Numbered from the stretch's first letter, positions 24,031 through 44,586 are shown. The stretch is DNA of 64,000 nucleotides from a bacterium (GCA_021815445.1 JAKAGM010000001.1:3447-67446); one strand, 5' to 3'. Notes: generated by a model not told the origin, from the sequence alone. Program-made: numbers and translations.

Positions 24031-24044
24031 GGAATTAGAGTAGT

Positions 24045-24072
24045 GTATCAGTGTGTTAACACATTGATACAT
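24045..24072 (+). promoter_or_regulatory. Palindromic operator-like site A (TGTATCAGTGTGTTAACACATTGATACA)
   Basis: A 28-bp near-perfect palindrome centred on GTTAAC. It is one of four related sites; this one lies about 165 bp upstream of the small membrane protein gene at 24240. Confidence 0.55.
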
Positions 24073-24239
24073 ACATAAAACTGTTTTTATAATGCATTGA
24101 CACTTGTGTGGGCGACTGCTACCATTGTCTAACCCTTTCGTACATTCGACATTCAAAAACATAACTACCAATAACAGTGCAGCCCTTTATATGTAGGCAA
24201 CACAAATTCTTAGTCCACGTTCTGAAGAAGGAGGATCAC

Positions 24240-24611
24240 ATGTCTAGAAAAGCGAAGTTCTGGATAACCTTAGTGCTTGGTCTCATCTACACCCTGTTTG
24301 GGTGGATGATGACCCATCATTTGCTGGCGGTCATCCTGACCTACGGCGCGCAGTCGGTGATTGCTGCGATCATCGCCGCGTCGTGCAACGAGCGCAATCA
24401 GCGTATCGGCGGCTGGTGGACGTTTGCCCAGGGTATGGCTTTCTGTGTCGTCGGCGGTTTCATCACTGGATTGCTCTACGTCTGGATCGCCTGCGGTCTC
24501 GCGGCAGTTGTCTACGGCGCTGGGATCGGAGGGATCAAGCTGGAAGAAGAGTTTCAGGAGAATCCTTCGATTCCAAAAGCACAACTGGGCATATGTTCAG
24601 TGTGGTGCTGA
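24240..24611 (+). CDS. Small integral membrane protein (about 123 aa, 4 TM)
   Basis: Strong RBS AGGAGG 6 nt upstream of the ATG at 24240; hydrophobic throughout. Confidence 0.5.
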   Translation: MSRKAKFWITLVLGLIYTLFGWMMTHHLLAVILTYGAQSVIAAIIAASCNERNQRIGGWWTFAQGMAFCVVGGFITGLLYVWIACGLAAVVYGAGIGGIKLEEEFQENPSIPKAQLGICSVWC

Positions 24612-24733
24612 TGTGACCATCAGTATGTTTCTTTCGACCCGCTTATGAGTGGGTCTTTTTTTATGTGCTTGCCCAGATGAACGTTTTGTGATAGAATACT
24701 CCTGTTAGCAACTTTATTCATCTTACCGCACTT

Positions 24734-26230
24734 ATGGGTCCGGCAAGAGCTTTTTTGTATATTCTCATCAGTTTTATCCTCGGGGTGGGGACTCGTTCTT
24801 TACTGCCTATCCCAACGGTTTTCGCTTTGACTGTCAGTGTGGTGGCGTTTTTGGGCATGATAATTGCGTTTCGTCACGCGACGGCGCGGTTCATATTTCT
24901 CTGCGCGCTTTTGTTTGCTCTCGGCATATTGCGCTTTAACATTTCAGAACCGCGCAATGATTCTACTGCCATTCGGTCGCTGAATAATAAGGGAACTGTG
25001 ACATTTATGGGTGTTGTTGTGCAGGAGCCTGATGTTAGGCAAGACAGCGTTAAGTTGACGGTCTCGGTGCGAAAGGTCCAACTCAAAAAACGTGATGCCG
25101 CCTACCGTGGCAAAGTTCTTGTAACAGCTCCGCTATATCCTGAGATTGCATATGGAGAGGCGCTTCTCATAACCTGTACGTTCAAATCTCCGGAGCCTGT
25201 CCAGGACTTTGCCTATGACCAGTACCTGAGCCGATTCGGCGTGTATTCTCTGTGTTCTTTCCCCCGCATCAAACGTGTCTCATCAGGGCAGGGGAATCCG
25301 ATCATGAACAGTATTCTCAACGTTAAGCGTTTATTCACCAACCGCATCCAAATGGCCGTACCTGAGCCGGAAGCGTCGTTTCTCGGGGGACTTGTGCTTG
25401 GTGCAAAACGCTCAATACCTCAAAAACTTATGGATGCATTCGCTCGGACAGGGACGACGCACGTCGTGGCGTTGTCAGGGTACAATATTACCATCATCGC
25501 AGTATGTATCCAGAATCTCTGCCGAGCTCTGCGAATTCCAAAGCGTAAAGGGTTCTGGGTGGCGCTTGGAGTGATTGCCATATTCATCCTTATGACCGGA
25601 GCTCAGGCATCAGTCGTGCGGGCGGGGATTATGGGTGGTCTTACTTTGCTTGCCAACCGCCTCGGCCGGCTTTCACGGATTACCAACGCGCTCGTACTTG
25701 CCGCATTTTGCATGTTGGCCATCAACCCGCGCATCCTTGCTTTTGACGCCGGCTTCCAGTTATCTTTTTTGTCCACTCTCGGGCTCGTGTACTGTTCGCC
25801 GCTCATAGAGAAATGGTTCGTTAAAGTTCCCGATGTCCTCGGGATGAGGTCGAGCCTTGTTGCCACTCTTTCGGCAATGATGTTCACGCTACCGCTGATT
25901 GTCGCGACTTTCGGGAGGATTTCGCTTATTGCGCCGCTTGTGAACGCGCTCATACTTCCGTTTGTCCCTCTTGCCATGGGTGTCGGATTTGCTACGGGTA
26001 TTGCGGCGTTTGTCTGGCTGCCGCTCGGGAAACTGTGCGGCTGGCTCGCCTGGCTGGTACTACGTTCAATACTTTTGGTTATCGAAACAGGATCATCACT
26101 GCCTTTCACATCATATTCGCTGTCACATATTCACTGGGCGTTGATTATTGCATGCTATGCCGGTATTATTTTTGTCCTTTGGAAAAATAAAAAAAGACCG
26201 CGGGGCGATATCGTGCGCCCTGCGGTATGA
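24734..26230 (+). CDS. comEC: DNA internalisation competence protein ComEC/Rec2 (DUF4131 plus competence channel domain), lacking the C-terminal MBL domain
   Basis: Multi-TM protein with motif ARTGTTHVVALSGYNITII, typical of the ComEC competence domain. Confidence 0.75.
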   Translation: MGPARAFLYILISFILGVGTRSLLPIPTVFALTVSVVAFLGMIIAFRHATARFIFLCALLFALGILRFNISEPRNDSTAIRSLNNKGTVTFMGVVVQEPDVRQDSVKLTVSVRKVQLKKRDAAYRGKVLVTAPLYPEIAYGEALLITCTFKSPEPVQDFAYDQYLSRFGVYSLCSFPRIKRVSSGQGNPIMNSILNVKRLFTNRIQMAVPEPEASFLGGLVLGAKRSIPQKLMDAFARTGTTHVVALSGYNITIIAVCIQNLCRALRIPKRKGFWVALGVIAIFILMTGAQASVVRAGIMGGLTLLANRLGRLSRITNALVLAAFCMLAINPRILAFDAGFQLSFLSTLGLVYCSPLIEKWFVKVPDVLGMRSSLVATLSAMMFTLPLIVATFGRISLIAPLVNALILPFVPLAMGVGFATGIAAFVWLPLGKLCGWLAWLVLRSILLVIETGSSLPFTSYSLSHIHWALIIACYAGIIFVLWKNKKRPRGDIVRPAV

Positions 26231-26260
26231 ATTCCTTGATAAAACATTGACACTTGACTG

Positions 26261-27190
26261 TCAGGTTTTCTCGGCCCAGATGGCCTCGGCTTCCTCAAGA
26301 AGTTGGATTCCTTCATTCTCGGGGCGCTGGAAGATATTGCGTCCAATGATGCTTCCAAACCCTCCGCCATCTCTGATGGCACGGATTTCCGAGAGAACCG
26401 CGGCCTTGTCTTTTGCTTCGCCCCCCGAGAAGAGGACGATCCTCCGGCCGCCGAAAGCGGACTGTATAACGTGTTTGATACTGTCGACGAGCGCAGTATG
26501 AGGGATGTCCAGATCTTCGTAGAGTTTCGATCCCTCTTGCTTACCGGCGAAGTACAGACTTCCTCGCGGCGGCTTCACCTTGACGATGTGCGCCCCAAGC
26601 TGGCAGGCGATGTGCGCGGCGTAGGCGATCACATCCGTAGCCTCCTGTTTCGCCTTGGTGTCGAGGTTGCCGCCTCGCGGATACGACCATACGACGACGA
26701 CCAGCCCGGCTGCCTTGGCCTCTGCGGCGATCTCGCGAAGCTGCTCATACATTTCACGCGAACGCGGAGATCCGGGGTAGATCGTAAATCCCACGGCGCG
26801 ACAGCCCAGGCGCAGCGCATCTTGGACTGAAGCCGTTACGGCAGGGCACGGATCGCCGGTGGAGAGCAGGTCGCTGTTGTTGAGTTTGAGTATCAAGGGG
26901 ATTCCCCCTTTGAATTCTTCGAATCCGGCTTCCAGAGCACCGAGAGGAGCAGCGTGGGCGTTACACCCCGCCTCGATGGCAAGATGGAAATGGTATCTGG
27001 GGTCGTATCCTGCCGGGTTCTTTGCGAAACTGGCTCCCGGACCATGCTCAAAACCCTGGTCAACGGGCAGGATGACCAATTTGCCGGTGCCCGCCAGCCT
27101 GCCGTGGTTGAGAATCTGTGCAAGATTCGCCAGCACTTGCTTATTTTCTCCCCGGTACCACGAGAGAATTTTATCAACTGGTTCTGACAT
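26261..27190 (-). CDS. fbaB: Class I fructose-bisphosphate aldolase, DhnA/FbaB (archaeal) type
   Basis: Motif ILPVDQGFEHGP and TIM-barrel length (about 309 aa from the ATG at 27190 with AGGAGG RBS). Confidence 0.6.
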   Translation of the reverse strand: MSEPVDKILSWYRGENKQVLANLAQILNHGRLAGTGKLVILPVDQGFEHGPGASFAKNPAGYDPRYHFHLAIEAGCNAHAAPLGALEAGFEEFKGGIPLILKLNNSDLLSTGDPCPAVTASVQDALRLGCRAVGFTIYPGSPRSREMYEQLREIAAEAKAAGLVVVVWSYPRGGNLDTKAKQEATDVIAYAAHIACQLGAHIVKVKPPRGSLYFAGKQEGSKLYEDLDIPHTALVDSIKHVIQSAFGGRRIVLFSGGEAKDKAAVLSEIRAIRDGGGFGSIIGRNIFQRPENEGIQLLEEAEAIWAEKT

Positions 27191-27339
27191 ACTCTTCCTC
27201 CTGTTACGTGGTGGTTTTGGTGAGCGATGTTGTTTCATGTTATTGCGAGATCACTCTATCATGTACCGTCTTGAGCGTCAATATAAGAAAAACGACCGCG
27301 GATTAATGCGGTCGTGACGTATTCAGAGTGTGCCGAGGG

Positions 27340-28293
27340 TCAGCAGTTGTTCCTTCCAAACTGATGTTTGGTTTCCATGAAGCGGATAGTGCCTGAAGCC
27401 GAGCGTCCCATGATTGAGTAGGTCACGTCTCCGTGAGGAGTGGTGCGTACACCGCGGAGCAGATCGCCGTCAGTGACCCCGGTGGCAGCAAAGATCACAT
27501 CCTCACCGCTGGCCAATTCCTTTGCCGTGTAGATCCGATCGGGATCCGTGATGCCCATTTCACGCGCTCGTTCTTTCTGGGCATCATCTTTCCACTGGAG
27601 CTGGCCGAGTATCTCGCCGCCCATGCAGCGAAGCGCCGCGGCGGCAAGCACCCCTTCAGGCGCGGCACCGATACCCATGAGCACATCAACGGGACTGTCA
27701 GGGAGCGCTGTCGCTATAGCCCCTGCGACGTCGCCGTCCTGGATGAAGTGGATGCGGGCGCCCGTAGAGCGGATCTCAGCCACCAGATCGTTATGTCGAT
27801 CGCGCTTCAAGACGACCACTACCAGGTCGCGCATCGGTTTACCAAGGGCCTTGGAAATCCTCTGAAGGTTCCAGGTGGGGGACTCTCGCAGATTGATGAC
27901 TCCGCATGCTTTGGGCCCGACAGCAAGTTTCCGCATGTAGCCGTCGGGAGCATGGAGCAGAGTGCCGGGATTGCCTGCGGCTATCACGGACATTGCGTTC
28001 TCGCCGCCCTCGGCAGTCCGGTCCGTACACTCGAGAGGATCGACAGCGATGTCGAGCTCGAGGCCATGTCCGGATCCAACCTTCTCGTCGATGAAGAGCA
28101 TGGGAGCTTCATCACGCTCTCCCTCGCCGATGACGATAGTGCCTCGGATGTCGATGAAGTTAAATTCACTCCGCATGGCTTCGACAGCGGCACTATCAGC
28201 GGCATGTTTATCGCCCCGACCAATCCAACCCGCGGCGGCTCGTGCAGCCGCCTCGGTGACTCTGACAAATTCAAGTGCAATGTTTTTATCCAT
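27340..28293 (-). CDS. glpX: Fructose-1,6-bisphosphatase class II (GlpX)
   Basis: N-terminus MDKNIALEFVRVTEAAARAAAGWIGRGDKHAADSAAVEAMR closely resembles E. coli GlpX. The same aacaggagg RBS as fbaB is present. Confidence 0.85.
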   Translation of the reverse strand: MDKNIALEFVRVTEAAARAAAGWIGRGDKHAADSAAVEAMRSEFNFIDIRGTIVIGEGERDEAPMLFIDEKVGSGHGLELDIAVDPLECTDRTAEGGENAMSVIAAGNPGTLLHAPDGYMRKLAVGPKACGVINLRESPTWNLQRISKALGKPMRDLVVVVLKRDRHNDLVAEIRSTGARIHFIQDGDVAGAIATALPDSPVDVLMGIGAAPEGVLAAAALRCMGGEILGQLQWKDDAQKERAREMGITDPDRIYTAKELASGEDVIFAATGVTDGDLLRGVRTTPHGDVTYSIMGRSASGTIRFMETKHQFGRNNC

Positions 28294-28394
28294 TCCTTTG
28301 CCTCCTGTTCTCGTGTTTGTAGGTTTGTTTTCCATAGTTCAGTCGTATTAAAATCATCTCATTTTTCGAAAGGTTTTGTCAACATCTGTAATGT

Positions 28395-29243
28395 ATGCGC
28401 TATATAAAAAAATACATTTACCTTGTGCCTATCGTCATACTGTTAATGCTCGCAGTAGGTTTTTTCGTATTTCGAGGCGACGGAATGCTCGTCGTCACCT
28501 TCCTCGATGTCGACCAAGGAGACAGTATCCTTATCCAAAGCCCTTCAAGCGCCACTGTCCTTATCGATTGCGGGCCGGACAGATCAGTGCTCTCGGAGCT
28601 CGGCCGCAGTGTGCCGTTTTATGACCGGACAATTGATCTTCTCGTCATCACGCATCCCGATGCCGACCATATCACCGGATGCATTGATGTCGTCGAGCGG
28701 TATCGCATTTCACGGGTGCTGATCACAGGCATTGCCTCAACAAGCAACCTGTGGTCAATTTTGGACGATGCCATAGAACGAAAACACATTCCCGCCACTG
28801 TAGCGCGGGCTGGTGAATCATTTATGTTTGATAGGGCTGTGCTGCGCGTCCTGTTTCCTCTTGAGGACGTTTCCGGCCAAACGTTTAAAAACACGAACGA
28901 CAGCTCGATAGTTGCGATGCTTGAGTATGGCGATGAAAGATTCCTTTTCACGGGCGATGCGAATGTCAGTGTTGAGCAGAAACTTCTCCAAGTGGGAACC
29001 AACGTGTCCGCCCAAGTGCTCAAAGTCGGGCATCACGGGAGCAGGACATCGTCATCACGGGAGTTTCTCGAAAAGGTGCATCCGGCTTATGCCGTCATCC
29101 AAGTAGGTGAGAAAAATAAATACGGACATCCGACTCAGGATGTTCTCGAAAGGTTGCGGCACATTGGAGCCAAAGTGTTGAGAACGGACAGAGACGGACG
29201 GTTAGAGATGAAGAGTGATGGAAGACAGGTGCGGGTTAAGTAG
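28395..29243 (+). CDS. Membrane-anchored MBL-fold metallo-hydrolase resembling the ComEC C-terminal beta-lactamase-like domain
   Basis: Motifs LDVDQGDSILI, ITHPDADHITG and KVGHHGSRTSS, encoded separately from comEC. Confidence 0.65.
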   Translation: MRYIKKYIYLVPIVILLMLAVGFFVFRGDGMLVVTFLDVDQGDSILIQSPSSATVLIDCGPDRSVLSELGRSVPFYDRTIDLLVITHPDADHITGCIDVVERYRISRVLITGIASTSNLWSILDDAIERKHIPATVARAGESFMFDRAVLRVLFPLEDVSGQTFKNTNDSSIVAMLEYGDERFLFTGDANVSVEQKLLQVGTNVSAQVLKVGHHGSRTSSSREFLEKVHPAYAVIQVGEKNKYGHPTQDVLERLRHIGAKVLRTDRDGRLEMKSDGRQVRVK

Positions 29244-29253
29244 ACTCTGAACT

Positions 29254-29784
29254 ATGTCGCGGCCCTTTCACTTACACGTAGAAGAAGGATATTATTTTCT
29301 TACTGCTCGGACTCAGCAAGGATACCCGTTTTTACATAGCCAAAATGCCAAAAGAATTCTCTTAGGATCAATTGAACAATCGGTTCAACAATGCACGATT
29401 AAACTTTTTGCGTGGGTAATAATGGATAATCATTACCACATTCTTATCGGTACCGATAGGGGGCAAAGAATACAACAGCTTATGCAGCTGATTCATGGAA
29501 GAAGCTCAAGACGTCTACGAAAGTTTAATCAAACGGAGGGCAGACTGATCAGTCTGCCCTCCACGGGGTGGAAAGTCTGGCAAAATTACTGGGACATATG
29601 TATCCGTGATGAGGCAGATTTCTTTACCCACCTGAACTATATCCACCACAACCCGGTCAAGCACGGATTAGTGAGAAGGATGGAGGACTACCCATTTTCA
29701 AGCTATAGACAATACGTTCAAACAGAGGGTTCTCAGTGGCTCGACAGCTCCTTTGAGACTTATCCCGTCATTGACTTTACATAG
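29254..29784 (+). mobile_element. IS200/IS605-family Y1 transposase / REP-associated tyrosine transposase (RAYT)-like gene
   Basis: HYHIL (HxH) motif plus C-terminal ...YIHHNPVKHGLV...DYPFSSYRQY (catalytic Tyr region) in an AT-rich segment. No flanking IS ends were identified. Confidence 0.6.
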
Positions 29785-29906
29785 TAGTAACCTTTCAGCT
29801 GCCTGACCATTACGTCCGCCTTGACAAAAGTTTACAGTTCATGTACGGTATGGGGAATTTCTAAATCACAAACTGTTCATCACATTCAACAGAAAGAGAG
29901 GTTTGT

Positions 29907-30974
29907 ATGGCCGCGGATCCAAGCGCTGAAAACACAGGATCCCGCCCGGGGCGACTCAGTGCGCTTCGAGATTTTACTTCGCGTTTTAAACCCACATTCA
30001 AAGCCGATGATAAGGCAATGCTCTTACTTCGGCTGGTCCTCTTCGTCGCGTGGGTCGGAGCCACCCTGGCTCTAGCTTTCACGCACCCGTTTCTGGCCGT
30101 CACCTTGTTTGGCACGGTTATGTTCTTCTTCGGCACCGTCAAGGTGGACGAAGGCAACCGTGGACTTCCATCTCTGCTTGGCGGGCGCAAACCCGTAAGT
30201 TTGCCTGAGGGCCTGAAGCCAGTCCTACCATTTTTGATCACGGTGCGCAGTATTGATATCCGTGATCATCTGACGATGGTAACTGTCAGGCATCAATCCG
30301 CGGACGGTTTCTTTCATGATGTGCAGGTTGCCGTGCAGTGGCATGCCCCTCGACGAAATGATGAGTCTGGTCGATGGTTCGACGGTCGTCAGCTTCTGGC
30401 GTTCGACAACCTTGAACCAGGGGTTGCTGAGCGGCAAGTGATCGCGCTGACCGAACAGGCTACAGAGCCCACCATAGCTTCCTATGCCCACGATCAGCTG
30501 TCCGGCATTAATGTCTACCAGTTGGTGGACAAGCTCAAGGATGCTCTGGAAAATGGGGTCAGCCTTGACCTGGGCGCAATCTTCTCCCGGGACTCGGCAA
30601 TCGCCCTGAAAACCCGGGCGGACATGGCTCGCCAAATCCGCGATGTCATTTCCGTCCAGCTGAAGTCTGTCGGGATTGTTGTCTCGATGGTCGCTATGGC
30701 CGTCGTGAATCCCGACAAGACCATTGTTGACCTCCTGGAGGAAATCCAAAGGCAGTTTGTCGAGAAGTCCTCCCAGGCGCTCGATACCGCGGGTGACATT
30801 CAGAAAGCGCTTCAGTTTGTCGAGGCGGCTAAGAGGCGCGGCCAGGAAGTTACGCTGCTTGACGCGTATCGAACGATTCGCGACCTCGATAACCGGGAAG
30901 TTGCAGCGAAGCAGGGCCTCTCAAGTGCCCTCATTGAAAGTCTTGCGAGGGCGGTCAGCAGTCAGGCAGCATGA
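29907..30974 (+). CDS. SPFH/Band-7 domain protein (stomatin/flotillin-like) with N-terminal membrane anchor
   Basis: TM region then a Band-7-like core and a C-terminal coiled coil (EEIQRQFVEKSSQALDTAGDIQKALQFVEAAKRRGQE). The start codon is ambiguous. Confidence 0.5.
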   Translation: MAADPSAENTGSRPGRLSALRDFTSRFKPTFKADDKAMLLLRLVLFVAWVGATLALAFTHPFLAVTLFGTVMFFFGTVKVDEGNRGLPSLLGGRKPVSLPEGLKPVLPFLITVRSIDIRDHLTMVTVRHQSADGFFHDVQVAVQWHAPRRNDESGRWFDGRQLLAFDNLEPGVAERQVIALTEQATEPTIASYAHDQLSGINVYQLVDKLKDALENGVSLDLGAIFSRDSAIALKTRADMARQIRDVISVQLKSVGIVVSMVAMAVVNPDKTIVDLLEEIQRQFVEKSSQALDTAGDIQKALQFVEAAKRRGQEVTLLDAYRTIRDLDNREVAAKQGLSSALIESLARAVSSQAA

Positions 30975-31431
30975 TCTTTCAACTTCTTCGGGTGTGAGCG
31001 GCCCAAGGGTGTTCACCTCCCACGGACTCGTGTATTTTGCGGGTCCTTTTTTTGTTCAAGTGGGATTACGAATCCCACCTACACGTGAGGCGGTCTTGAC
31101 AAGATCATGGTAAATGTGGTAAGGTGGGGTGCTTTTTATGATGCACAAAGTGTGTCTTAGGAAGCTTGTCAGGAGGGTAGTATTTGAATGCTCTTTGACA
31201 ATTGAATGAACAATCAACTTAAGTTCTCATAACTCATAGCTCACCCCAGATGCGGGTGGAAAGGAGTAATTCCTTATGAACGCGCATGCGTTCAAAGTGT
31301 CTTTTGGCACTTGGTGCGCCAGGGCACCCGCAAATTCCTGGACGTTTCCACTTCCAACGCGGGAGGTGAGCGATGGTTGAGCAGTATCTTGGAATGGCGC
31401 AAGTTGTTGAAGCGGGAGGAGGTGATCCTTC

Positions 31432-32355: not shown

Positions 32356-32409
32356 CTGCAACCAATCCCCGGTGACGACAATTGTCCCGGTGCAAACTGG
32401 AGAAATACA

Positions 32410-33023: not shown

Positions 33024-33024
33024 C

Positions 33025-34995: not shown

Positions 34996-35161
34996 TTGAT
35001 TGTGTCATTTCAATTGTTCAACGGGGGACGAGTCTTTACGATTCGCCCCCTTTTTATTTAGCGGCATCAGATGTTTGCATAATGGGTCATGCAGACATTT
35101 TTTAAGTTGAAATAAATTTTCGAGCGGCGATAGCATGTAAAAAACTTGGAAGAATTCTCAC

Positions 35162-35190
35162 TTGAAATAATATGCGTTCCATGGTATACT
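35162..35190 (+). promoter_or_regulatory. Sigma70-like promoter TTGAAA-17-TATACT upstream of the NHL/FG-GAP protein gene
   Basis: TTGAAA 35162-35167, TATACT 35185-35190, AT-rich UP-like region upstream. Confidence 0.4.
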
Positions 35191-35224
35191 GAGTCAGGAA
35201 ATAAAAAACCAAAACCATTATCCC

Positions 35225-38200: not shown

Positions 38201-38551
38201 ATACAGACATTCCAGTTCCGTTCAGGGATCGTCAAGCGCCTCAATCCCGGGTGGTTCGTATTTTCCCGTGATTATCGCGGAGGGGTTTCAGTCGCGGGAG
38301 CCGATGTCGACGGAGACGGGTCAAAAGAAATCATCGTCGGGGTAGGGGACAATGCGACGCCCCTGGTGAAAGTGCTCAACAAGAGCGGTACGCTTGTGAA
38401 ACAATTCTATGCTTTTGCCACGACCTTCTTGGGCGGTGTCAATATAGGCGGTGGCGATGTCGACGGTGACGGGCTGGACGAAGTTCTTGTGCTTCCTAGA
38501 AGCGGGGGAGGGCCGAATCTCCGGATTATCAATGTCGAACAGTTGAAGTAA
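35225..38551 (+). CDS. Giant secreted protein: NHL-repeat beta-propellers plus IPT/TIG-like segment plus FG-GAP/VCBS (integrin-alpha-like) repeats
   Basis: Signal peptide; many NHL-type repeats (YVADxxNNRIRKI, NNRVRRV, NHRIRKID); C-terminal DVNGDGxxDIV / DIDGDGKEEII / DVDGDGSKEII repeats. Confidence 0.6.
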   Translation: MLRRYLFFTAVFGAIAIAISIFAVPVGHAAYGDTSTFIGQIYAGDGGQVLDAYFDFPDDMILDASGNFLIADTYNNVVRKVDGSGIVSTMAGTGSTGFINGASGSAEFYQPRALVAAANGDIYVADSANNAVRKISGGIVSTVVSSGLNSPLGLALAGTALYISDSGNNAIKYVSTSGGAVTTLATGVNDPRKLIVSADGSKLYVADNGNHRVVSIALPGGAVTVVAGSGTSGYVEGTGTAAQFQNVWGLVQDGTTLYVTDHDGLVTDRIRTINLNTGTTGLFAFDQYQRTMLYPGALVIKDGYLYAMMTGRGTIQRFLLTDSATTDHFGGVEAFSDTIGTNALVGRPLDLTLSPDGKYVYFSENNKVRKFDATTGEVLTVLGSITDGYREGTDAYPSPMRFSGPFGITVNSTGTRLYVADRNNNRIRGVLLDATPISSFLVSGAGLTNTTGTQDNGYQEGVKCEGELAQGVSGCAYFKNPAGIVIDPTNTYLYVTDTGNNRVRRVRISDGQTSLIAGSGTAGFADGAGSAAKFNRPFGIAIDSAGKFLYIADSNNHRIRKIDLATNTVSTLIGTGALGYANATPLNSVLSYPEYVDVTSNGNVYFTEAGSQRIRVFDIAANAVKLVAGSGTRGFLNGAASVAKFNNLKGLAVDTQKNKIFVADSWNDLIRAVNITGDIPYTDPAPEVAAVSPKNVNPAWNTGSGLKVQITGKNFRYNATVLFGNFTAEKTWVVSGTAIVAQLPLSKMSPGIYDVTVREADGQEATLEKGFNLTQTNNALSTTYFAYAGKKQANIAVAPGSSFFAFSSTLRGGFNVTSGNVAGDSKSEIIVGTGNGMNPEIRVFTNGGKLLSAFAPYSPSIKSGVRLYVCDVNGDGAKDIVTVPGPGAAPLVKVFSGEGKLESSFSALDGKFKGGAFLACGDVNGDGVSDIVVSAGKGGGPHVTAHSSSGKIIANFFAYDKNFRGGIRVATADIDGDGKEEIITGPDNGAPHIQTFQFRSGIVKRLNPGWFVFSRDYRGGVSVAGADVDGDGSKEIIVGVGDNATPLVKVLNKSGTLVKQFYAFATTFLGGVNIGGGDVDGDGLDEVLVLPRSGGGPNLRIINVEQLK

Positions 38552-38578
38552 AAAGCGTTGAAAAAGGAATAGCGTGGG

Positions 38579-38608
38579 TATATCAACGTGTTAACACATT
38601 AATACATT
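38579..38608 (+). promoter_or_regulatory. Palindromic operator-like site B (GTATATCAACGTGTTAACACATTAATACAT)
   Basis: Same GTTAAC-centred palindrome family; ends 22 bp upstream of the ATG at 38630. Confidence 0.5.
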
Positions 38609-38629
38609 TCGAAAGACAAGAACAGATCC

Positions 38630-39280
38630 ATGAAAGCAAAAATACCGCTCACAAACACCACGGTTGCGGTCGTATGGTCGTTTGTTGCTGTCTTTTACGC
38701 CATAATCTTCACTACATCAAAGTATTTATTCTGGCAGAAACTTGGTGAAACAAGCATTTTGTTTGCTTTTATCATTATACTTTTACCATACTTTGTCGTA
38801 CTCTTTTTTATTGTTCGTTTTGTGAGAGAAGGGGTAGAAATAACGCGCAGAATTCGGGCAGACCTAGGGGAAGCGGCAGAATACGCCTCAGGTGACACGA
38901 TTACTTCACGGATGTATTTTATTATTCCTGCGCTCCAGGGCAAGTATGCAATCCCTGAGGAAAACGTGCTGACGTATTATCAAACCCATATCCAGGATAT
39001 CAAAACGCAAGCCGCAGGGTTTATGCATTTTGCTATTCTTCTGACCGTTTCAGGTGTGGCGATATCTCTTCGGGTAAATTCAGTTTCAGGAACTCTATTC
39101 GCGATTCTTATCGCTGTCATTGCTCTAGGTATGTGGGGGTGGGCCTTTGATTATCGCAGTATCGAGGCATTGCGTACAAGGCGATTCACGGGATTTTTGA
39201 GAAAGAATCCTAAACTCTTTGCTGTTGGGTTTCTGAGTTTAGTATGCGCGATGGTTTTACTGGCTGTAGTCGGGTATTAG
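38630..39280 (+). CDS. Hypothetical integral membrane protein (about 216 aa, AT-richer codon usage)
   Basis: 5-6 predicted TM helices; no motif. Confidence 0.45.
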   Translation: MKAKIPLTNTTVAVVWSFVAVFYAIIFTTSKYLFWQKLGETSILFAFIIILLPYFVVLFFIVRFVREGVEITRRIRADLGEAAEYASGDTITSRMYFIIPALQGKYAIPEENVLTYYQTHIQDIKTQAAGFMHFAILLTVSGVAISLRVNSVSGTLFAILIAVIALGMWGWAFDYRSIEALRTRRFTGFLRKNPKLFAVGFLSLVCAMVLLAVVGY

Positions 39281-39318
39281 TGTACTTTGAGGGCCATGAT
39301 GTAGCGTCGCATATGTTA

Positions 39319-39348
39319 GTGTTCCGATGTGTTAACACACTAGTACAT
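39319..39348 (+). promoter_or_regulatory. Palindromic operator-like site C (GTGTTCCGATGTGTTAACACACTAGTACAT)
   Basis: Same palindrome family; about 160 bp upstream of malQ. Confidence 0.5.
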
Positions 39349-39508
39349 TTCGTAAATAAAAAATTCCAGCCAGCCTTTTATGTGCAAACAGGGGTTGTTT
39401 TTGTTTCAGTAAGCGTATAAACTACCGGCGGTAGAGATGGTATCGCGATGTAGTGTTTTGAGAATACATCAAGGGGTCATGAGCAATGTTTTATGCTAAC
39501 ATGATAAT

Positions 39509-40990
39509 ATGAAAACACGCCGATCAGGCATTCTCCTCCACCCGACTTCGCTCCCCAGTCCGTACGGCATTGGGGACTTTGGGCCGGAGGCGTACAGTTT
39601 CGTGGATTTTCTGAGAAAAGCCGGGCAAAAGTTCTGGCAGGTTTTGCCGCTCAGAATACCCGATGAAACCGGCTCCCCGTACGCGTCGTCGTCTGCGTTT
39701 GCCGGTAACTGGCTCTTGGTCAGTCCGGATCTTTTGGTCGCGCAAGGGCTGTTGCCTGAATCAGAACTCCCGCGCGAACGAAAGGTCGGTTTTGTGAATT
39801 ATGACAACCTGATTCACGACAGGAAAAATATGCTTGACCGTTCTCTGCGGTATTTCGACGATTCGGTATCCGAACGGCTTAAAAAAGCCTTCTGGGAATT
39901 TAAAAAGCGCGAGTCGTGGTGGCTGAGGGATTTTTCCCTTTTTATGGCCATAAAGGATTTTTTTGGAGGCAGATCGTGGCATCGATGGTCCGACGGTTTG
40001 GCGCGAAGAAATCCAGATACGCTCCGGTTATGGGCAAAAACTCTTGGAAATGGAATGAGAATATACGAGTACGGGCAGTGGCTTTTTTTCAGGCAGTGGG
40101 AGAGTTTGCGGGCGTATGCAAATCGTCGCGGAATCCAGATCATCGGTGACGTGCCGTTTTTTGTGCGTCACGACAGCGTGGATGTGTGGAGCCATCGCAG
40201 GTTGTTCATGCTTGATAAGAGGAATCTCCCGCGGGTCGTTTCCGGCGTCCCGCCCGACTATTTCAGTTCCCGAGGACAGATATGGCGCGACCCCCAGTAT
40301 GACTGGAAGGCGATGGAACAGGGGCAATTCACATGGTGGGTACAGCGTCTCGGGATGGTGCTGCGGCTGTATGATAAAGTCAGGCTTGACCATTTCCGCG
40401 GGTATGAAGCAGTCTGGCACATCAGACGGGGGAGTCTGACAGCGCGAAACGGGCACTGGTCTCCCGTGCCTGGCGATAAACTCTTTACTCGCATGTGCAA
40501 ATTTTCGAAACATATGCCGTTTATTGCGGAAGATCTCGGATTGATAACTGACGACGTAACCGCATTGCGGAAAAAATTCGGCTTTCCTTCAATGCGCGTC
40601 CTCCAGTTCGGTTTCTCGCTCAATGCCGGAAATCCGCACGCCATCAAAAACCTGCCTCTGAACGCGGTGGTCTACACAGGGACGCATGATAACAATACCG
40701 CGCAAGGGTGGATTCTCGATGATGCGCCCGCAAATATTCGACGGCACGCTCTCGCCGTGCTTAAAGCCGACAAGCGCACTTTCGCATGGAAGCTTATCCA
40801 AGCAGGGATGAAGTCCCGGGCTGATACGTTCATTGCGCCGCTCCAAGATGTGCTCGGTCTGGGCTCGGAGGCACGCATGAATACCCCATCGACAAAACGA
40901 AAAAATTGGCGGTGGAGACTCAAGCCCGCAGTCCTGACGGACCAGATTGCAAAGAAATTAAGGAAACTCAGCACAGATTCGGGCAGGTAA
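39509..40990 (+). CDS. malQ: 4-alpha-glucanotransferase (amylomaltase, GH77)
   Basis: N-terminal ILLHPTSLPSPYGIGDFG signature and GH77 catalytic region motifs. Confidence 0.85.
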   Translation: MKTRRSGILLHPTSLPSPYGIGDFGPEAYSFVDFLRKAGQKFWQVLPLRIPDETGSPYASSSAFAGNWLLVSPDLLVAQGLLPESELPRERKVGFVNYDNLIHDRKNMLDRSLRYFDDSVSERLKKAFWEFKKRESWWLRDFSLFMAIKDFFGGRSWHRWSDGLARRNPDTLRLWAKTLGNGMRIYEYGQWLFFRQWESLRAYANRRGIQIIGDVPFFVRHDSVDVWSHRRLFMLDKRNLPRVVSGVPPDYFSSRGQIWRDPQYDWKAMEQGQFTWWVQRLGMVLRLYDKVRLDHFRGYEAVWHIRRGSLTARNGHWSPVPGDKLFTRMCKFSKHMPFIAEDLGLITDDVTALRKKFGFPSMRVLQFGFSLNAGNPHAIKNLPLNAVVYTGTHDNNTAQGWILDDAPANIRRHALAVLKADKRTFAWKLIQAGMKSRADTFIAPLQDVLGLGSEARMNTPSTKRKNWRWRLKPAVLTDQIAKKLRKLSTDSGR

Positions 40991-41304
40991 ATAAAAAAAG
41001 CCCCTCGCCTCAATGGTGGGTCTCATCGAGTACTCAAAGGGGCTTCTCGGGCAGCCGCGCAGGGTACGGAGTTTCATACCCACTAACGTCGCCAACGTTC
41101 TTCGCGACACCCGGTCGTTTCCAGGGAAAACCTGGTTCTGCTTGTTCTTGTCGGATAAAATAAATGTACCAATTACAAGCCTACCTTCGGTTGCCATTAA
41201 GGTCAAGTGGAATTTTTGAAATTAGTCGGACTTCTTTGTGGATCCACGTCAAACTCGCTAAGCACGACGGTACGGGCAGGCGGGGAGACTGTTTTCAGAA
41301 GTAA

Positions 41305-41353
41305 GCGGACCCAACCCCGTCATTCGCGAATGACGGGGTGGTCTTCTCCGTGA
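41305..41353 (-). repeat. Partial copy of the tRNA-Asp 3' half (anticodon-stem 3' side, variable loop, acceptor 3' strand) with the T-arm replaced by a 12-bp perfect hairpin
   Basis: Minus strand reads CACGGAGAAGACCA-CCCCGTCATTCGCGAATGACGGGG-TTGGGTCCGC. Compare the intact tRNA: CACGGAGAAGACCAGGGGTTCAAATCCCCTTGGGTCCG. Confidence 0.6.
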
Positions 41354-41413
41354 TCCCGCACCATGTCGCTTCGCTCCAGATGCGGGACTTCGCAGGGAGG
41401 CATTTTCCTCAAA

Positions 41414-41445
41414 CCGGACCCAAGGGGATTTGGTTCCGGGGTCTC
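41414..41445 (-). repeat. Second partial copy of the tRNA-Asp 3' end (about 22 nt AAATCCCCTTGGGTCCGGTTT)
   Basis: Direct repeat of the 3' terminal segment of the tRNA at 41573-41647, about 115 bp downstream of it. Confidence 0.6.
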
Positions 41446-41572
41446 GCTGTTCCTTCGGAACATCGCTCGACCCGTCTCGTCCCGCGCGAAGCAAAACTAT
41501 TTGCTTCGCTTGTTGACTCAACCCCCTGATCTTCTCGGGGATCTGTGCAAGTTAGGCGCATTGTTTCCAAAC

Positions 41573-41647
41573 CGGACCCAAGGGGATTTGAACCCCTGGT
41601 CTTCTCCGTGACAGGGAGACGTGTTAACCGGGCTACACCATGGGTCC
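41573..41647 (-). tRNA. tRNA-Asp (anticodon GTC)
   Basis: Manual cloverleaf fold. Acceptor GGACCCA/TGGGTCC, D-arm GTGT..ACAC, anticodon stem TCTCC/GGAGA with loop CTGTCAC, T-arm AGGGG-TTCAAAT-CCCCT, discriminator G. No encoded CCA. Confidence 0.85.
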
Positions 41648-41757
41648 GGTTTGGAAACAATATGTTAATGTGACGTTCACTACTTTACCAAGCGAAATGG
41701 GAAATGTACAGGGATAGCACAAAGAACTGTCACTGTCCGCCGGAGGGGCGGTTTTTC

Positions 41758-42105
41758 CTATTTTTTTGCGGCTTTCTCAACCACTGCGGCAAAGATTTGA
41801 GGATGGAATTCAGCAAGGTCAGCCAATATTTTTCTATTGAGCTCAATCTTGGCAATCTTCAGGAGATGAATTAATTTAGAATAACTCATCTTGTTCTGGC
41901 GAGCAGCGGCGTTGACTTGCATCGTCCATTGAGAGCGAAAGTCGCCTTTTTTCATCTTGCGATGCTTGTACGCGAAGGATCCCGCTTTTAGGTGAGCGAC
42001 TTTGGCAAGCCGGGGTATATTTTTCCTGCCCCACCTGTAGCCTTTTACTTTGCGCAGGAGGCGTTTTCTTTTTTTTGCCCTAATTGTTCCACGTTTGACG
42101 CGCAT
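41758..42105 (-). CDS. rplT: 50S ribosomal protein L20
   Basis: MRVKRGTIRAKKRKRLLRKVKGYRWGRKN... matches the L20 N-terminus; ILADLAEF motif at the C-terminus. Confidence 0.9.
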   Translation of the reverse strand: MRVKRGTIRAKKRKRLLRKVKGYRWGRKNIPRLAKVAHLKAGSFAYKHRKMKKGDFRSQWTMQVNAAARQNKMSYSKLIHLLKIAKIELNRKILADLAEFHPQIFAAVVEKAAKK

Positions 42106-42110
42106 AGATA

Positions 42111-42308
42111 TTATCGGTAGGGGGTTACACGGCGAACAATCTTTTCGAATGAATGGTCAACATTTTTATCACGACGTTTCCGGCGTGTAACAATGCTCGA
42201 CTCTCGGGCGTTGAAATGGTCTTGGCCCGCTTTTCGCCTGATGAGCTTTCCGCGTTTGGTGACCCTGAAGCGTTTCGCAGTTGCTTTATGTGTTCTGAGC
42301 TTTGCCAT
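42111..42308 (-). CDS. rpmI: 50S ribosomal protein L35
   Basis: MAKLRTHKATAKRFRVTKRGKLIRRKAG...; 65 aa. Confidence 0.9.
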   Translation of the reverse strand: MAKLRTHKATAKRFRVTKRGKLIRRKAGQDHFNARESSIVTRRKRRDKNVDHSFEKIVRRVTPYR

Positions 42309-42313
42309 AGAAA

Positions 42314-42829
42314 TTATTTCTTTTTCATGAGAAGCATAGTCAGCCTGCCGCCCATTTTTGATACGTCCTGTTCTATCTGTACCGTGTCGCCGAATGAACG
42401 GGCAAACTCATGCATTTGGTCGATTGCCCGGCGCACATGTGCGCGTTCCCGTCCCCGTAAAATCATTTCCACCTGAACCTTATCTCCCTTTTCAAAAAAT
42501 TTCTCCGACTGGGCATGTCTCATCTCAAGATCGTGCTTGCCGATATTGATAGAGATACGGATGCCCTTTATCTCAACCCGTTTCTGTCTGGCCTTGTTTT
42601 TCCGTTCCAACTTCTCCTGCCGAAATTGGTAGGCGCCATAGTCCATAATACGGACCACCGGCGGATTCGCCAGGGGGGAAACCTCGATAAGGTCAAGCCC
42701 ACGCTCTTGTGCCATCTGGAGAGCGTCGCGAATAGAAACGACACCTATTTGGGCATCTTTTTCGTCGATCAACCTTACTTCCGGTACTCGAATCTGATGG
42801 TTCAGCCGATAGCGCTTAGTAGTACTAAT
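42314..42829 (-). CDS. infC: Translation initiation factor IF-3, initiating at an AUU codon
   Basis: Extending the ORF upstream in frame gives (M)STTKRYRLNHQIRVPEVRLIDEKDAQIGVVSIRDALQMAQERGLDLIEV, which matches the IF3 N-terminus. The first in-frame start is ATT at 42829, the conserved autoregulatory AUU start of infC. The track ORF starts at a TTG inside the gene. Confidence 0.8.
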   Translation of the reverse strand: MSTTKRYRLNHQIRVPEVRLIDEKDAQIGVVSIRDALQMAQERGLDLIEVSPLANPPVVRIMDYGAYQFRQEKLERKNKARQKRVEIKGIRISINIGKHDLEMRHAQSEKFFEKGDKVQVEMILRGRERAHVRRAIDQMHEFARSFGDTVQIEQDVSKMGGRLTMLLMKKK

Positions 42830-42840
42830 TGTTCTATGAA

Positions 42841-43110
42841 TTAATGATTAACTTTCTTGTAGGGGTGACCAAATTCGATCAAATTGAGTTTTTTGTCTCG
42901 CCGCCAGCCTTTAATCTGTCTTTCTCGGTTTCTTGCTTCTCGAAGAGTATCAAATTGTTCTTGATATACCAACTTTACTGGAAGCCTTTTTCTCGTATGT
43001 TCGGGACCCAACCCGAGATTGTGTATCTTAACTCTTACTTTAAGGTGGCTACTAGTTCCTGTATACAGCGAGTTATCAGAGCAAAGAAGGATGTAAAGAT
43101 AGTACTTCAT
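42841..43110 (-). CDS. GIY-YIG nuclease superfamily protein (UPF0213/YhbQ-like, about 89 aa)
   Basis: MKYYLYILLCSDNSLYTGTSSHLKVRVKIHNLG...GWRRDKKLNLIE: GIY...YIG...R...E core. The surrounding DNA (42830-43230) is conspicuously AT-rich. Confidence 0.65.
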   Translation of the reverse strand: MKYYLYILLCSDNSLYTGTSSHLKVRVKIHNLGLGPEHTRKRLPVKLVYQEQFDTLREARNRERQIKGWRRDKKLNLIEFGHPYKKVNH

Positions 43111-43231
43111 ACTCTTGGTGCCCTTCGGTATGCTCAGGGCACCATTCGATTCAAGGCTGCCTTGACTTAAGGGGTTGTCGATCCTCCTATTGGTCGAAGA
43201 CCATGAGTGAGGAGCGTAGCGACGAATCGAA

Positions 43232-43641
43232 TGGTGGAGATGAGGGGAATTGCACCCCTGTCCAATATACGAACCAGTCAACGTCTCCAAGCTATCCTAT
43301 TTTAGCGTGGTCGATGGCAGAAGTCAAAATAGGAAAAAGGTCCTGCCATCCGAGTCTCGTGGTACGGCCGGGAGCAAGAGACACGCTCGTCGGTCGTCCT
43401 CCGTTTGTGACACCTCCGACCTTCTCAGGAGGAATCAGAAGGGGAGATGGTTATCGGTTTTTACGCGACAACAGGCGCAAAGGAAGGCGCAAATACGCTT
43501 GCAAGTGCGGTCTTCGCTTTGCTTACAAATGATTTGGCATTTGTCTAATTGGAGCCAGTTTAACGTCATGAACTGCCGTGGACGGCTTGCAGTTGAGATG
43601 GCAATGTACACTGTCGATTATAAGCATCCCCATGATGCGCC
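43232..43641 (-). ncRNA. ssrA: tmRNA (ssrA)
   Basis: Minus strand 5' end GGGGATGCTTATAATCGACAG... pairs with the 3' end ...AGGGGTGCAATTCCCCTCATCTCCACCA. The acceptor stem has the G3:U70 Ala-identity pair, with T-arm and encoded CCA. It is located 25 nt downstream of smpB on the same strand. Confidence 0.8.
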
Positions 43642-43665
43642 TGATTGCGGAAAGGTTGAAAATGA

Positions 43666-44109
43666 TCAGTAGTCCAGCGCTTGCCTGATCCGCCGGTCAA
43701 CCTCGCGTTTCTTAATGGTTTCGCGCTTATCCTGTTTCTTCTTCCCGCGCGCCAAACCCAGCTCAACCTTGATCAAGCTACCCTTAGTATAGACAGAAAG
43801 CGGAATAAGTGTCAAGCCTGCCGAAGCCATCTTCCCGATCAATGATTTGATGTCCTCACGCTTCACAAGCAGCTTCTTTTCTCGGTCAGGATCCTCGTGG
43901 GATTCTTTCGAAGCACGCTGGTATCTCGCTATATGGCAGCCGATCAGCCAGAGTTCATTGCCGCGCATGCTCACATAACTTCCCATCAGAGTACAGTTGC
44001 CCAGCTTGACCGACTTTACCTCTGCGCCTCTCAATACAATACCGGCCTCAATTTTTTCGAGGATTGTGTAGTTGAAATAGCCTTTTTTGTTCTTAGCGAG
44101 GGTAGGCAT
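43666..44109 (-). CDS. smpB: SsrA-binding protein SmpB
   Basis: Motifs GIVLRGAEVKS, GYVSMRGNELWL and the basic C-terminal tail KKKQDKRETIKKREVDRRIR. Confidence 0.9.
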   Translation of the reverse strand: MPTLAKNKKGYFNYTILEKIEAGIVLRGAEVKSVKLGNCTLMGSYVSMRGNELWLIGCHIARYQRASKESHEDPDREKKLLVKREDIKSLIGKMASAGLTLIPLSVYTKGSLIKVELGLARGKKKQDKRETIKKREVDRRIRQALDY

Positions 44110-44182
44110 AGGAATATGAGTAGTATACAGGATTTTTGAACTGTGGATAATCGGGGTTGACGTCCGAAGTTGTTTGGGTGTA

Positions 44183-44212
44183 GTGTATCAATGTGTTAAC
44201 ACACTAATACAC
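44183..44212 (+). promoter_or_regulatory. Palindromic operator-like site D (GTGTATCAATGTGTTAACACACTAATACAC)
   Basis: The best-formed copy of the palindrome; ends 20 bp upstream of the TrpR-like gene start, so probably autoregulatory. Confidence 0.55.
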
Positions 44213-44232
44213 CTCAGCATGTACCCCATTTT

Positions 44233-44586
44233 ATGCCAAAGCGTTCGATAGACTGGAACAAAAGAAAAACAAGCGATCTCTTTGAAGCGGTTCTCGCGCT
44301 TAAAACGCAGGATGAGTGCAGGCGTTTTTTCCGTGACCTGTGCACGCTTGAGGAAATTGCCGCACTTGCCGACAGGTGGCAGATGGTCAAAATGATGGTC
44401 CAAGGATATTCATACCGCGATATATCGGCGAAACTCAAAGTGAGCACAACGACTGTTGCCCGTGTCGCGCAGTGGTTCACACGAGGCGAAGAGGGTTATC
44501 GGCTCGTGGTTAAGAGACTGGGGCTCACCAGACTGCCTGAAGCAAAAATTTCTTCAAATCATTATCACCACGCTTCTCTTCACTGA
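44233..44586 (+). CDS. TrpR-like DNA-binding protein (YerC/YecD family)
   Basis: LFEAVLALKTQDECRRFFRDLCTLEEIAALADRWQMVKMMVQGYSYRDISAKLKVSTTTVARVAQW is the hallmark of the Trp-repressor-related YerC/YecD family (HTH). A weak terminator-like hairpin plus T8 follows at about 44626-44656. Confidence 0.7.
   Translation: MPKRSIDWNKRKTSDLFEAVLALKTQDECRRFFRDLCTLEEIAALADRWQMVKMMVQGYSYRDISAKLKVSTTTVARVAQWFTRGEEGYRLVVKRLGLTRLPEAKISSNHYHHASLH

Follow-up and report, generated by a model that had tools for sequence, protein, structure and literature searches.

In the 64,000-nt stretch of bacterial DNA analysed here (GCA_021815445.1 JAKAGM010000001.1:3447-67446; hereafter the window, of which positions 24,045-44,586 are shown), four GTTAAC-centred palindromes likely serve as operators of a HisR-type (YerC/YecD, TrpR-family) repressor whose gene lies at 44233-44586, a reading that we hold with good confidence from sequence comparison. 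The first-pass annotation had likewise proposed operators of the adjacent YerC protein, autoregulation included, and the proposal gains weight from a motif that appears to travel with yerC across phyla and to overlap a conserved promoter. In the mechanism we envisage, two repressor dimers would occupy each site in tandem, following the example of Trp repressor at its own operators, and the bound protein would occlude the -10 element and transcription start of yerC, the -35 element of a gene for a 123-aa protein and the -10 region of a gene for a 216-aa protein. The targets of repression would then be the regulator's own gene, two genes for small membrane proteins specific to the lineage and, probably, malQ; repression as the sign of regulation, like binding, stoichiometry and effector, is what we infer in this model. 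We know of almost nothing on transcriptional regulation in Patescibacteria (the candidate phyla radiation, CPR), to which the source organism appears to belong, and the locus would provide a concrete regulatory unit: its small regulator has homologues of solved structure, its putative operator of 28 bp is sharply defined and conserved from phylum to phylum, and an attenuator with covarying helices goes with them.

The four sites lie at 24044-24071 (site 1, TGTATCAGTGTGTTAACACATTGATACA), 38579-38606 (site 2, TATATCAACGTGTTAACACATTAATACA), 39320-39347 (site 3, TGTTCCGATGTGTTAACACACTAGTACA) and 44184-44211 (site 4, TGTATCAATGTGTTAACACACTAATACA), within 1-2 nt of where the first-pass annotation had put them, and the unit conserved among them measures 28 bp. 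A weight matrix derived exclusively from other genomes' sites scored them at 49.1 bits (sites 1 and 4), 44.4 bits (site 2) and 30.4 bits (site 3), while the next-best position in the 64 kb (12674-12701) reached 0.3 bits, about the level of the best of 50 shuffles (-0.2) and probably a chance match; this gap between sites and background indicates that the window holds exactly four sites. Pattern counts gave the same picture, with three matches to a 22-nt degenerate pattern (0.00 expected) and four to the 12-nt core TGTGTTAACACA (0.10 expected). All four sites are intergenic (0/4 within a long open reading frame, ORF): site 4 is 20-21 nt from the yerC ATG (44233), site 2 is 21-23 nt from the start of the 216-aa gene (38630), site 3 is 160 nt from the malQ start (39509) and site 1 is 167 nt from the start of the 123-aa gene (24240), distances that bear out those first given. 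All four are present, far above chance, with one correction for site 3, whose left outer arm is degenerate and which retains intact only its right-hand 20-mer (39328-39347). Sites 2 and 3 have a common 3' flank, TACATTTCG(A/T)AA, and one of them may be a duplicate of the other.

Each 28-mer consists of TGTATCAA, a central TGTG TTAA CACA and TTGATACA, and its positions 1-20 and 9-28 each fit TGTRTYAR-N4-YTRAYACA with zero or one mismatch, giving two 20-bp boxes whose centres are 8 bp apart and which have the central TTAA in common. The four sites contain seven intact boxes, and the window as a whole eight matches to the box pattern against 0.33 expected; both boxes of site 4 (44184-44203 and 44192-44211) lie directly upstream of yerC. 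The eighth match (46047-46066, two mismatches) falls inside a 212-aa ORF and is probably due to chance. Among sites not picked by the core pattern, the outer half-site reads TGTAT[TC]A[AG] and the inner [TC]GT[GA]TTAA. Since outer and inner half-sites fit one consensus, TGTRTYAA, the operator comprises four half-sites in the order -> -> <- <-. A logo of the half that the search pattern had left unspecified showed TGTAT(C/T)A conserved at -14 to -8 and nothing beyond, placing the edge of the element at 28 bp. We regard each 28-mer as probably two overlapping 20-bp boxes of HisR type for two dimers, in place of the single long dimer operator suggested in the first-pass annotation. Two YerC dimers per full site would match the precedent of the Trp repressor, whose dimers, according to Lawson and Carey in 1993, reportedly bind in tandem at 8-bp intervals; site 3, lacking its left outer half-site, could accommodate one dimer.

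The candidate regulator gene (yerC/hisR-like, 44233-44586, plus strand) encodes a TrpR-family protein of 117 aa, compared with 98-101 aa in most relatives, and carries an 18-aa His-rich C-terminal extension (...SSNHYHHASLH). The product matches Pfam PF01371 (Trp_repressor; E 5.5e-24, 84.5 bits, cut-off 27) and NCBIfam TIGR02531 (YerC/YecD; 87.4 bits, cut-off 42.2), fails the TrpR equivalog TIGR01321 (23.8 bits, cut-off 67.25) and aligns with PDB entries 3FRW, 3KOR and 3G1C at E about 1e-18, so the earlier identification of this gene as YerC/YecD was upheld, as was that of malQ. Identity to E. coli TrpR is 21%. The closest homologues, at 69-74% identity, come from Candidatus Kerfeldbacteria, Parcubacteria and other Patescibacteria metagenome-assembled genomes (MAGs), and the neighbourhoods of both yerC and comEC show synteny with GCA_001818285.1 (Kerfeldbacteria) and GCA_001004025.1 (Parcubacteria group). 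Homology and synteny together suggest that the window derives from a small-genome Patescibacteria (CPR) bacterium.

The predicted yerC promoter (44157-44186, plus strand) has a -35 element TTGACG at 44157-44162, an 18-nt spacer and a -10 element TAGTGT at 44181-44186; a simple consensus scan did not report it, and the call is based on conservation, an alignment of the smpB-yerC spacer showing the layout TGTGGATAA, TTGACR, 17-18 nt, TA(A/G/T)T(G/C/A)T in six genomes. The last three bases of the -10 element are the first three of site 4, and with this overlap yerC transcription is predicted to start inside the palindrome. At site 1, the -35 hexamer of a strong, near-consensus promoter for the 123-aa gene (24064-24093, plus strand; TTGATA-18-TATAAT, 11/12 consensus matches) falls within the right arm, and a second promoter-like sequence (TTGACA-17-TACCAT) follows at 24097-24125. 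A candidate promoter at site 2 was likewise missed by the consensus scan and was read by eye, with a -35 element TTGAAA at 38558-38563, a 17-nt spacer and a weak -10 element TATCAA at 38581-38586 in the left arm of the palindrome. Given these site-promoter overlaps, repression by occlusion fits three of the four sites.

That the palindromes act instead as RNA or as single strands, whether as a hairpin in an untranslated region (UTR), a terminator or a roadblock, seems to us highly improbable. Site 1 can be folded as a 15-pair hairpin, sites 2 and 4 stand 20 nt before start codons and could belong to 5' UTRs, and some sites in other genomes occupy convergent junctions, all of which would suit a function at the RNA level. 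But when folded as single-stranded DNA, sites 1-4 gave z-scores of -2.99, +0.39, -0.15 and -1.18 relative to shuffled sequences, and only site 1 folded better. In sites 2-4 the two arms differ at degenerate positions, each arm remaining within the half-site consensus while complementarity is lost, and arms that vary without compensation indicate a protein site rather than a hairpin or a repetitive extragenic palindromic (REP) element. Furthermore, with the yerC start predicted inside the palindrome the full hairpin would not be transcribed, the stem is AT-rich, true terminators adjoin the site, and are not within the palindrome, at three loci of other genomes (L038, L106 and L031; L numbers denote the loci compared), and Rfam matched neither the sites nor the leader elements described below.

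The operator reading draws much of its support from other genomes. When 185,579 species, each represented by a single genome, were scanned with a pattern that specified one arm plus the core (GTGTTAACACAYTRRTACA), we found 35 loci, and the unspecified arm was conserved too in 27 of them. We defined a well-formed site as one with at least 20 of 28 positions self-complementary, which is expected for 5% of chance half-site matches; by this measure, 40 of 71 non-redundant sites (from 83 loci) recovered with the same pattern from metagenomes were well formed, and 2.9 million viral contigs yielded one match only, a chance half-site. The palindrome thus occurs at more than 60 loci over Patescibacteria, Gammaproteobacteria and other phyla; its hosts are mainly Patescibacteria and also include gammaproteobacterial MAGs (64-69% GC), Opitutia, Bacteriovoracaceae and others, and the motif-bearing loci span GC contents of 0.30-0.69. 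Exact conservation across phyla over such a range of base composition is not the behaviour of a REP-type repeat, and its simplest explanation would be a site co-evolving with a conserved DNA-binding protein.

The placement of these sites points to which protein that might be. By the strict pattern there are two or three copies per MAG, and MAGs with several matches typically have one site beside yerC and one to three elsewhere (two loci, L114 and L118, have four sites each), which on positional grounds is what a local regulator under its own control would show. A yerC homologue, detected by tblastn with YerC proteins, adjoins the site in 22 of 96 non-redundant loci, and when variant cores are allowed none of the yerC loci examined lacks a site 7-45 bp upstream of the gene. 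Among them are six loci fetched through the protein (L121-L124, L130 and L131), where the site is 7-22 bp before the yerC start in all cases, as well as one Patescibacteria clade (L010, L024, L025, L028, L035 and L096) in which the exact-pattern site is downstream of yerC and a matrix scan revealed a second, upstream site with the variant core GTGTTAATAC or GTATTAACAC. At seven gammaproteobacterial MAG loci the 28-mer precedes yerC-hisG-hisD-hisC, the gene order already published for HisR in Proteobacteria. Conservation of sites upstream of yerC and malQ orthologues, a comparison that the first-pass annotation had named as a check, was found for both genes in relatives.

We give almost no credence to the explanation that the palindromes are a REP-like or MITE-like (miniature inverted-repeat transposable element) intergenic repeat, or a hairpin associated with IS200 or RAYT (REP-associated tyrosine transposase) elements, which happens to adjoin yerC. 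As in REP/RAYT systems, an intergenic palindrome and a Y1_Tnp (IS200-like) gene occur in the same window; roughly a quarter of the sites in other genomes are at convergent junctions, and three sites are extended to perfect palindromes of 44-48 bp there. However, the low copy number (four in the window), the cross-phylum conservation with tight linkage to yerC, the non-compensatory arm changes, with three of four window copies folding no better than shuffled sequence, and the single chance half-site in viral contigs all speak against a mobile or repetitive element. The Y1_Tnp gene itself (29254-29784; 176 aa, E 1.8e-10) was rejected as a link to REP/RAYT: the nearest window palindromes are 5-9 kb away, and a relative (Parcubacteria GW2011_GWC2_49_9, L125) keeps the MBL / Y1_Tnp / Band_7 gene order with no palindrome there. 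It has the look of a resident gene, possibly a domesticated one, and not of an active insertion sequence.

It is also quite improbable that the operators are real but bound by a different DNA-binding protein, with yerC merely one of its targets. A conserved DnaA box near the yerC -35 element shows that other factors may act there; against this, the half-site is identical to the motif that others derived, independently, for proteobacterial HisR from the regions ahead of hisR-his operons, site and yerC co-occur from Gammaproteobacteria to Patescibacteria, and the motif class follows the recognition residues. At the position of Gln68-Arg69 in E. coli TrpR, all proteins with TGTA...TACA-type sites, patescibacterial and proteobacterial, have Tyr-Arg, whereas two Firmicutes HisR structures, whose motif is of the cacTTTA type, have Tyr-Leu or Tyr-Ala. 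Arg69 is among the DNA-contacting residues of TrpR (PMC9413887), and the way in which arginine at this position tracks the motif class may be taken as a lead, not as proof.

Several observations weigh against the repressor-operator reading, or at least against its simplest form. Sites 1 and 3 are about 160 nt away from the start codons of their putative targets, and a consensus scan found no recognisable promoter beside site 3. Both membrane-protein targets are orphans and so not checkable by conservation. No gene for histidine biosynthesis or transport is among the window targets, and the 64 kb contain no hisG, hisD or hisC. The 3:4 terminator stem of the window's attenuator (see below) is weak, with a C·A mismatch. 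In other genomes, 14 of 55 well-formed sites lie between convergent ORFs (on crude ORF calls), about what random intergenic placement gives, and three sites (L034, L044 and L081) are extended to perfect palindromes of 44-48 bp, 8-10 bp per side beyond the core. Convergent-junction sites and extended palindromes are unexplained by a simple promoter-operator model; unannotated small transcripts, such as the His-His (HH) leader described below, may lie behind some of the former. Convergent-junction or extended sites are at L003 6145-6216, L016 3434, L038 747, L044 449, L062 589, L081 3434 and L034 29, and at L003 two sites stand in tandem at the convergent junction.

Among the candidate targets, malQ (39509-40990, plus strand; GH77 4-alpha-glucanotransferase, PF02446, E 1.5e-157) is the one that can be followed into relatives. 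In the Kerfeldbacteria relative L121, whose regulator is 69% identical, a site at 3846-3873 (38.6 bits) precedes malQ at 4240; the malQ-upstream site is conserved in L121 and L122, and the gene before malQ differs from that in the window. Either malQ itself or some unrecognised element in its long leader is thereby supported as a conserved target.

The two membrane-protein genes present a different case, and their description as transporter-like found no backing in either protein's family matches. The 216-aa protein (38630-39280, plus strand; about five predicted membrane helices) has no Pfam or NCBIfam match and retrieved only itself from 5.8 billion clustered proteins; a search of 1.84 billion representatives added one remote relative (E 3.7e-4), whose gene has no site upstream. 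The 123-aa protein (24240-24611, plus strand; about three predicted helices) has sub-threshold DUF4199/DUF308 matches only in Pfam and none in NCBIfam, and its gene ends at a terminator (24636-24655 plus a T run). The syntenic relatives L125 and L126 have neither this gene nor site 1 in their prfB-comEC interval, and gene and site look like a lineage-specific module. Each orphan membrane gene together with its own operator (24044-24663 and 38558-39280) is an insertion relative to L125/L126 and L121, respectively. ComEC, which would imply a DNA-uptake regulon, was considered as a target of site 1 and rejected: the strong terminator at 24636-24655 and a promoter-like site of its own at 24669-24697 intervene, and L125/L126 have prfB-comEC without site 1 or the 123-aa gene.

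Targets elsewhere are heterogeneous. Most first genes downstream of sites in other genomes have no Pfam match, membrane proteins are not enriched among them (15 of 66 first genes versus 185 of 651 genes overall), and a common regulon function across Patescibacteria was not established from these loci, a purine-salvage theme amounting to a handful of them.

Comparison with characterised systems separates what was already known here from what appears new. YerC/YecD proteins, described in the first-pass annotation as poorly characterised, turn out to have both a name and a motif that is published and validated in vitro: the B. subtilis yerC product is HisR, a TrpR-family histidine repressor, whose regulon was reconstructed in 395 Firmicutes and 97 other genomes, and the Ruminococcus gnavus protein binds DNA in vitro in a histidine-dependent manner (Ashniev et al. 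2022, PMC9413887). The motif cacTTTA-N6-TAAAgtg is common to Firmicutes, Actinobacteria and Synergistetes, the proteobacterial motif is TGTAnTAr-N4-yTAnTACA (sites include tgtattaacgcgctaacaca, tgtattaacacattaacaca and tgtattaacgcgttagtaca), and in about half of the genomes the HisR family has an operator upstream of the regulator's own gene (PMC9413887). Our full-text literature search found no paper connecting HisR/YerC with Patescibacteria.

The window system resembles proteobacterial HisR most closely, in family (TIGR02531/PF01371), in the half-site TGTRTYAA and in its autoregulatory site, which in Proteobacteria lies 20-100 bp upstream of the gene. The family-type operator (20 bp, two 8-nt half-sites, 4-nt gap) is present upstream of the regulator's own gene, and its boxes come in overlapping pairs: published proteobacterial sites are single 20-bp boxes, whereas here two overlap at an 8-bp offset to give 28 bp with four half-sites. 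Proteobacterial hisR is also the first gene of hisR-hisGDC(B)HAF(IE) operons, while the targets here are not his genes and the host is Patescibacteria-like rather than proteobacterial; histidine biosynthesis or transport genes, a family feature of the regulon missing in the window, do appear in the gammaproteobacterial loci that carry this motif. Firmicutes HisR (B. subtilis YerC, R. gnavus; 3G1C, 3FRW, 3KOR) is homologous over the whole domain at about 40% identity and is a histidine-dependent repressor, often autoregulated, as the putative autoregulatory site suggests here too, but has a different motif, no arginine at the TrpR-Arg69 position in the two structures aligned and a regulon of histidine biosynthesis and histidine transporters. 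E. coli TrpR belongs to the same fold family and, like the window protein, is associated with a GTTAAC-centred operator (TGTACTAGTTAACTAGTACA) with half-sites every 8 bp, modelled in TrpR as GNACT half-sites at 8-bp spacing (PMC9413887); the two proteins are not orthologous and differ in the ligand-contact region. Family, half-site and autoregulation were thus already known. New, as far as sequences can tell, would be a TrpR-like tandem (doubled) operator built from the proteobacterial-type box, its wide conservation in Patescibacteria with a regulon without his genes, and its coupling to a His-codon attenuator, here fused to the regulator's own tail. The HisR story would be extended by box doubling, by a regulon detached from his genes and by a regulator tail used as leader peptide.

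This attenuator (44560-44656, plus strand) is merged with the 3' end of yerC and has the architecture of a leader-peptide element of the trp or his type. His codons at 44560-44571 (CAT-TAT-CAC-CAC) and 44581-44583 (CAC) are followed or overlapped by region 1 (44573-44582) and region 2 (44581-44591, with the stop codon TGA at 44584-44586), and further downstream lie region 3 (44631-44641), region 4 (44642-48) and a run of eight T (44649-44656). Homologous elements occur in relatives: in L130 the corresponding nucleotides make up a mini-ORF of their own immediately behind yerC (MASIVNISLHHHYTSLH), free-standing HH mini-ORFs also follow yerC in L124, L131 and L108, the fused form of the window recurs in L121, and HH or HHH leaders occur in L010, L024, L025, L035, L060 and L096 as well. 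Altogether at least 12 Patescibacteria loci combine yerC with a His-codon leader/attenuator, among them those that precede a PNP_UDP_1 phosphorylase gene (PNP). The window's intergenic DNA has no HH mini-ORF elsewhere.

We compared six attenuator sequences (window, L121, L130, L124, L131 and L108, three of them nearly identical there). Region 1 after the His codons reads CTCTTC or CCTCTTT, region 2 with its stop codon CAC-TGA-AGAGG or TTC-TAA-AGAGG, region 3 after a variable spacer CCTCTTCAGTG or CCTCTTTAGAA, and region 4 AAGAGG followed by the T run. The mutually exclusive pairings 1:2, 2:3 and 3:4 are possible in all six, with duplex energies of -5.5 to -10.7, -11.4 to -16.4 (the strongest) and -3.1 to -8.6 kcal/mol, respectively. 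With the spacer removed, 93.9% of cells in the 2:3 helix are paired and four of 11 pairs show compensatory changes, a covariation score reached by none of 500 shuffles; slid controls pair at 35-52%. A ribosome stalled on the His codons would cover region 1, so that 2:3 pairs and polymerase reads through, whereas a ribosome at the stop codon would cover region 2 and allow the 3:4 terminator to form. Termination at the weak window stem may be leaky.

The attenuator would gate read-through from yerC into the radical-SAM gene downstream (44692-45972, plus strand; 426 aa, Pfam Radical_SAM, only weak generic NCBIfam matches). This gene is not conserved at the post-attenuator position in relatives, and we name it only tentatively as the read-through target. 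The His-rich tail was also considered as the precursor of a ribosomally synthesised and post-translationally modified peptide (RiPP), a reading we set aside in view of the covarying RNA helices and of a radical-SAM gene that relatives do not have at this place.

Enterobacterial hisL-type attenuators (with candidates in the Bacillus cereus group and Eubacteriales, PMC9413887) have the same run of His codons with a stop next to region 2, the same mutually exclusive pairings (1:2, 2:3 and 3:4) and a terminator that ends in a T run. They differ in that the element here has only two to four His codons and comes after yerC, not before his genes; the regulator's C-terminal tail itself forms the leader in the window and L121, and the downstream genes vary (radical SAM, PNP, small unknowns). 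In E. coli, trp is one unit under a repressor and a leader-peptide attenuator (trpL) that sense the same amino acid, and the candidate circuit here has a similar dual layer, except that trpL precedes biosynthetic genes and this attenuator follows the regulator gene, with the leader fused to the regulator.

In the Kerfeldbacteria-like clade, yerC is flanked on both sides by palindromes, and the downstream palindrome is followed in order by an HH mini-ORF (for example MDNLFNLNLNHHNTTLARGER), covarying hairpins, a strong terminator and a conserved GTTCTTTAACAAYTTAAYTCA block, then by unrelated genes; the elements have no Rfam match. They lie at L010 6571-6770, L035 791-990 (minus strand), L025 5894-6153 (minus), L024 1367-1566 (minus), L028 4784-4983, L060 357-556 and L096 455-654 (minus).

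By analogy with characterised HisR proteins, histidine is a candidate co-repressor or signal that we favour by a little. The His-codon leader accompanies yerC across lineages, and of the reasons available this is the best for thinking that the system has kept its response to histidine supply. With no his gene among the window targets, and none as a target outside Proteobacteria in the loci examined, a histidine effector is an extrapolation. It is rather unlikely, to our mind, but deserves attention, that the sites are YerC operators whose effector is a purine- or nucleoside-related metabolite, the regulon serving nucleoside or nutrient salvage. Genes in other Patescibacteria loci give hints of such a theme: a PNP_UDP_1 phosphorylase is downstream of a site or HH leader in L108 (5135-6154, minus strand), L118 (5956-6839) and L131 (10300-11318), with sites preceding it in L108 and L118; a site also precedes YfiH/Cu-oxidase_4 in L114 (7710-9698), a phosphoribosyltransferase in L080 and an SPL-like (PA0069/Rv2578c family) radical-SAM gene in L104, L113 and L114, and adenosine-deaminase clusters adjoin sites in L019, L031 and L094. 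However, the N-terminal HisR block LFxAIL-LK--EC--FFxDLCT--E, in the ligand domain, is common to the window protein, Firmicutes HisR and the his-operon proteobacterial proteins, and the His-codon leader beside yerC ties the system to histidine or His-tRNA supply.

Patescibacteria are, to our knowledge, generally unable to make histidine. It is possible, though we would put this forward with considerable doubt, that they kept a two-layer histidine circuit, a HisR-type repressor on a tandem operator of four half-sites plus a His-codon attenuator that some lineages have fused to the C-terminus of the repressor, and rewired it from biosynthesis to scavenging and other functions. On the same tentative footing, the rewired circuit might take in nucleoside phosphorylase, YfiH, alpha-glucan turnover and membrane proteins, and might act as a starvation or host-supply sensor suited to an epibiotic lifestyle. 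If histidine is indeed the signal, the system would show that these reduced organisms monitor a host-derived nutrient and switch genes in response.

The surroundings of yerC offer some further observations. A perfect DnaA box (TTATCCACA; TGTGGATAA on the plus strand) at 44142-44150, 6 nt upstream of the yerC -35 element, is invariant in position in six related genomes, raising the possibility of DnaA-dependent control of the smpB/yerC spacer. Further perfect boxes are at 6373-6381, 22571-22579 and 46574-46582, making four against about 0.5 expected from length, and with up to one mismatch the window has 23 matches against 10.9 expected. The tmRNA gene (43232-43631, minus strand; tag peptide AKSFVSKAKTALASVFAPSFAPVVA) and smpB (43666-44109, minus strand) are divergent from yerC, smpB is again paired with yerC in L108, L122, L123, L124, L130 and L131, and the operator region might also influence smpB-ssrA. 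In L010, L024, L025, L028 and L035 it is glyA (serine hydroxymethyltransferase) that diverges from yerC across a common upstream operator region. AICAR (5-aminoimidazole-4-carboxamide ribonucleotide) is a by-product of histidine synthesis, and purC/purE and purH (SAICAR synthase, AICAR transformylase/IMP cyclohydrolase) lie within 8 kb of yerC in L123, L124 and L131.

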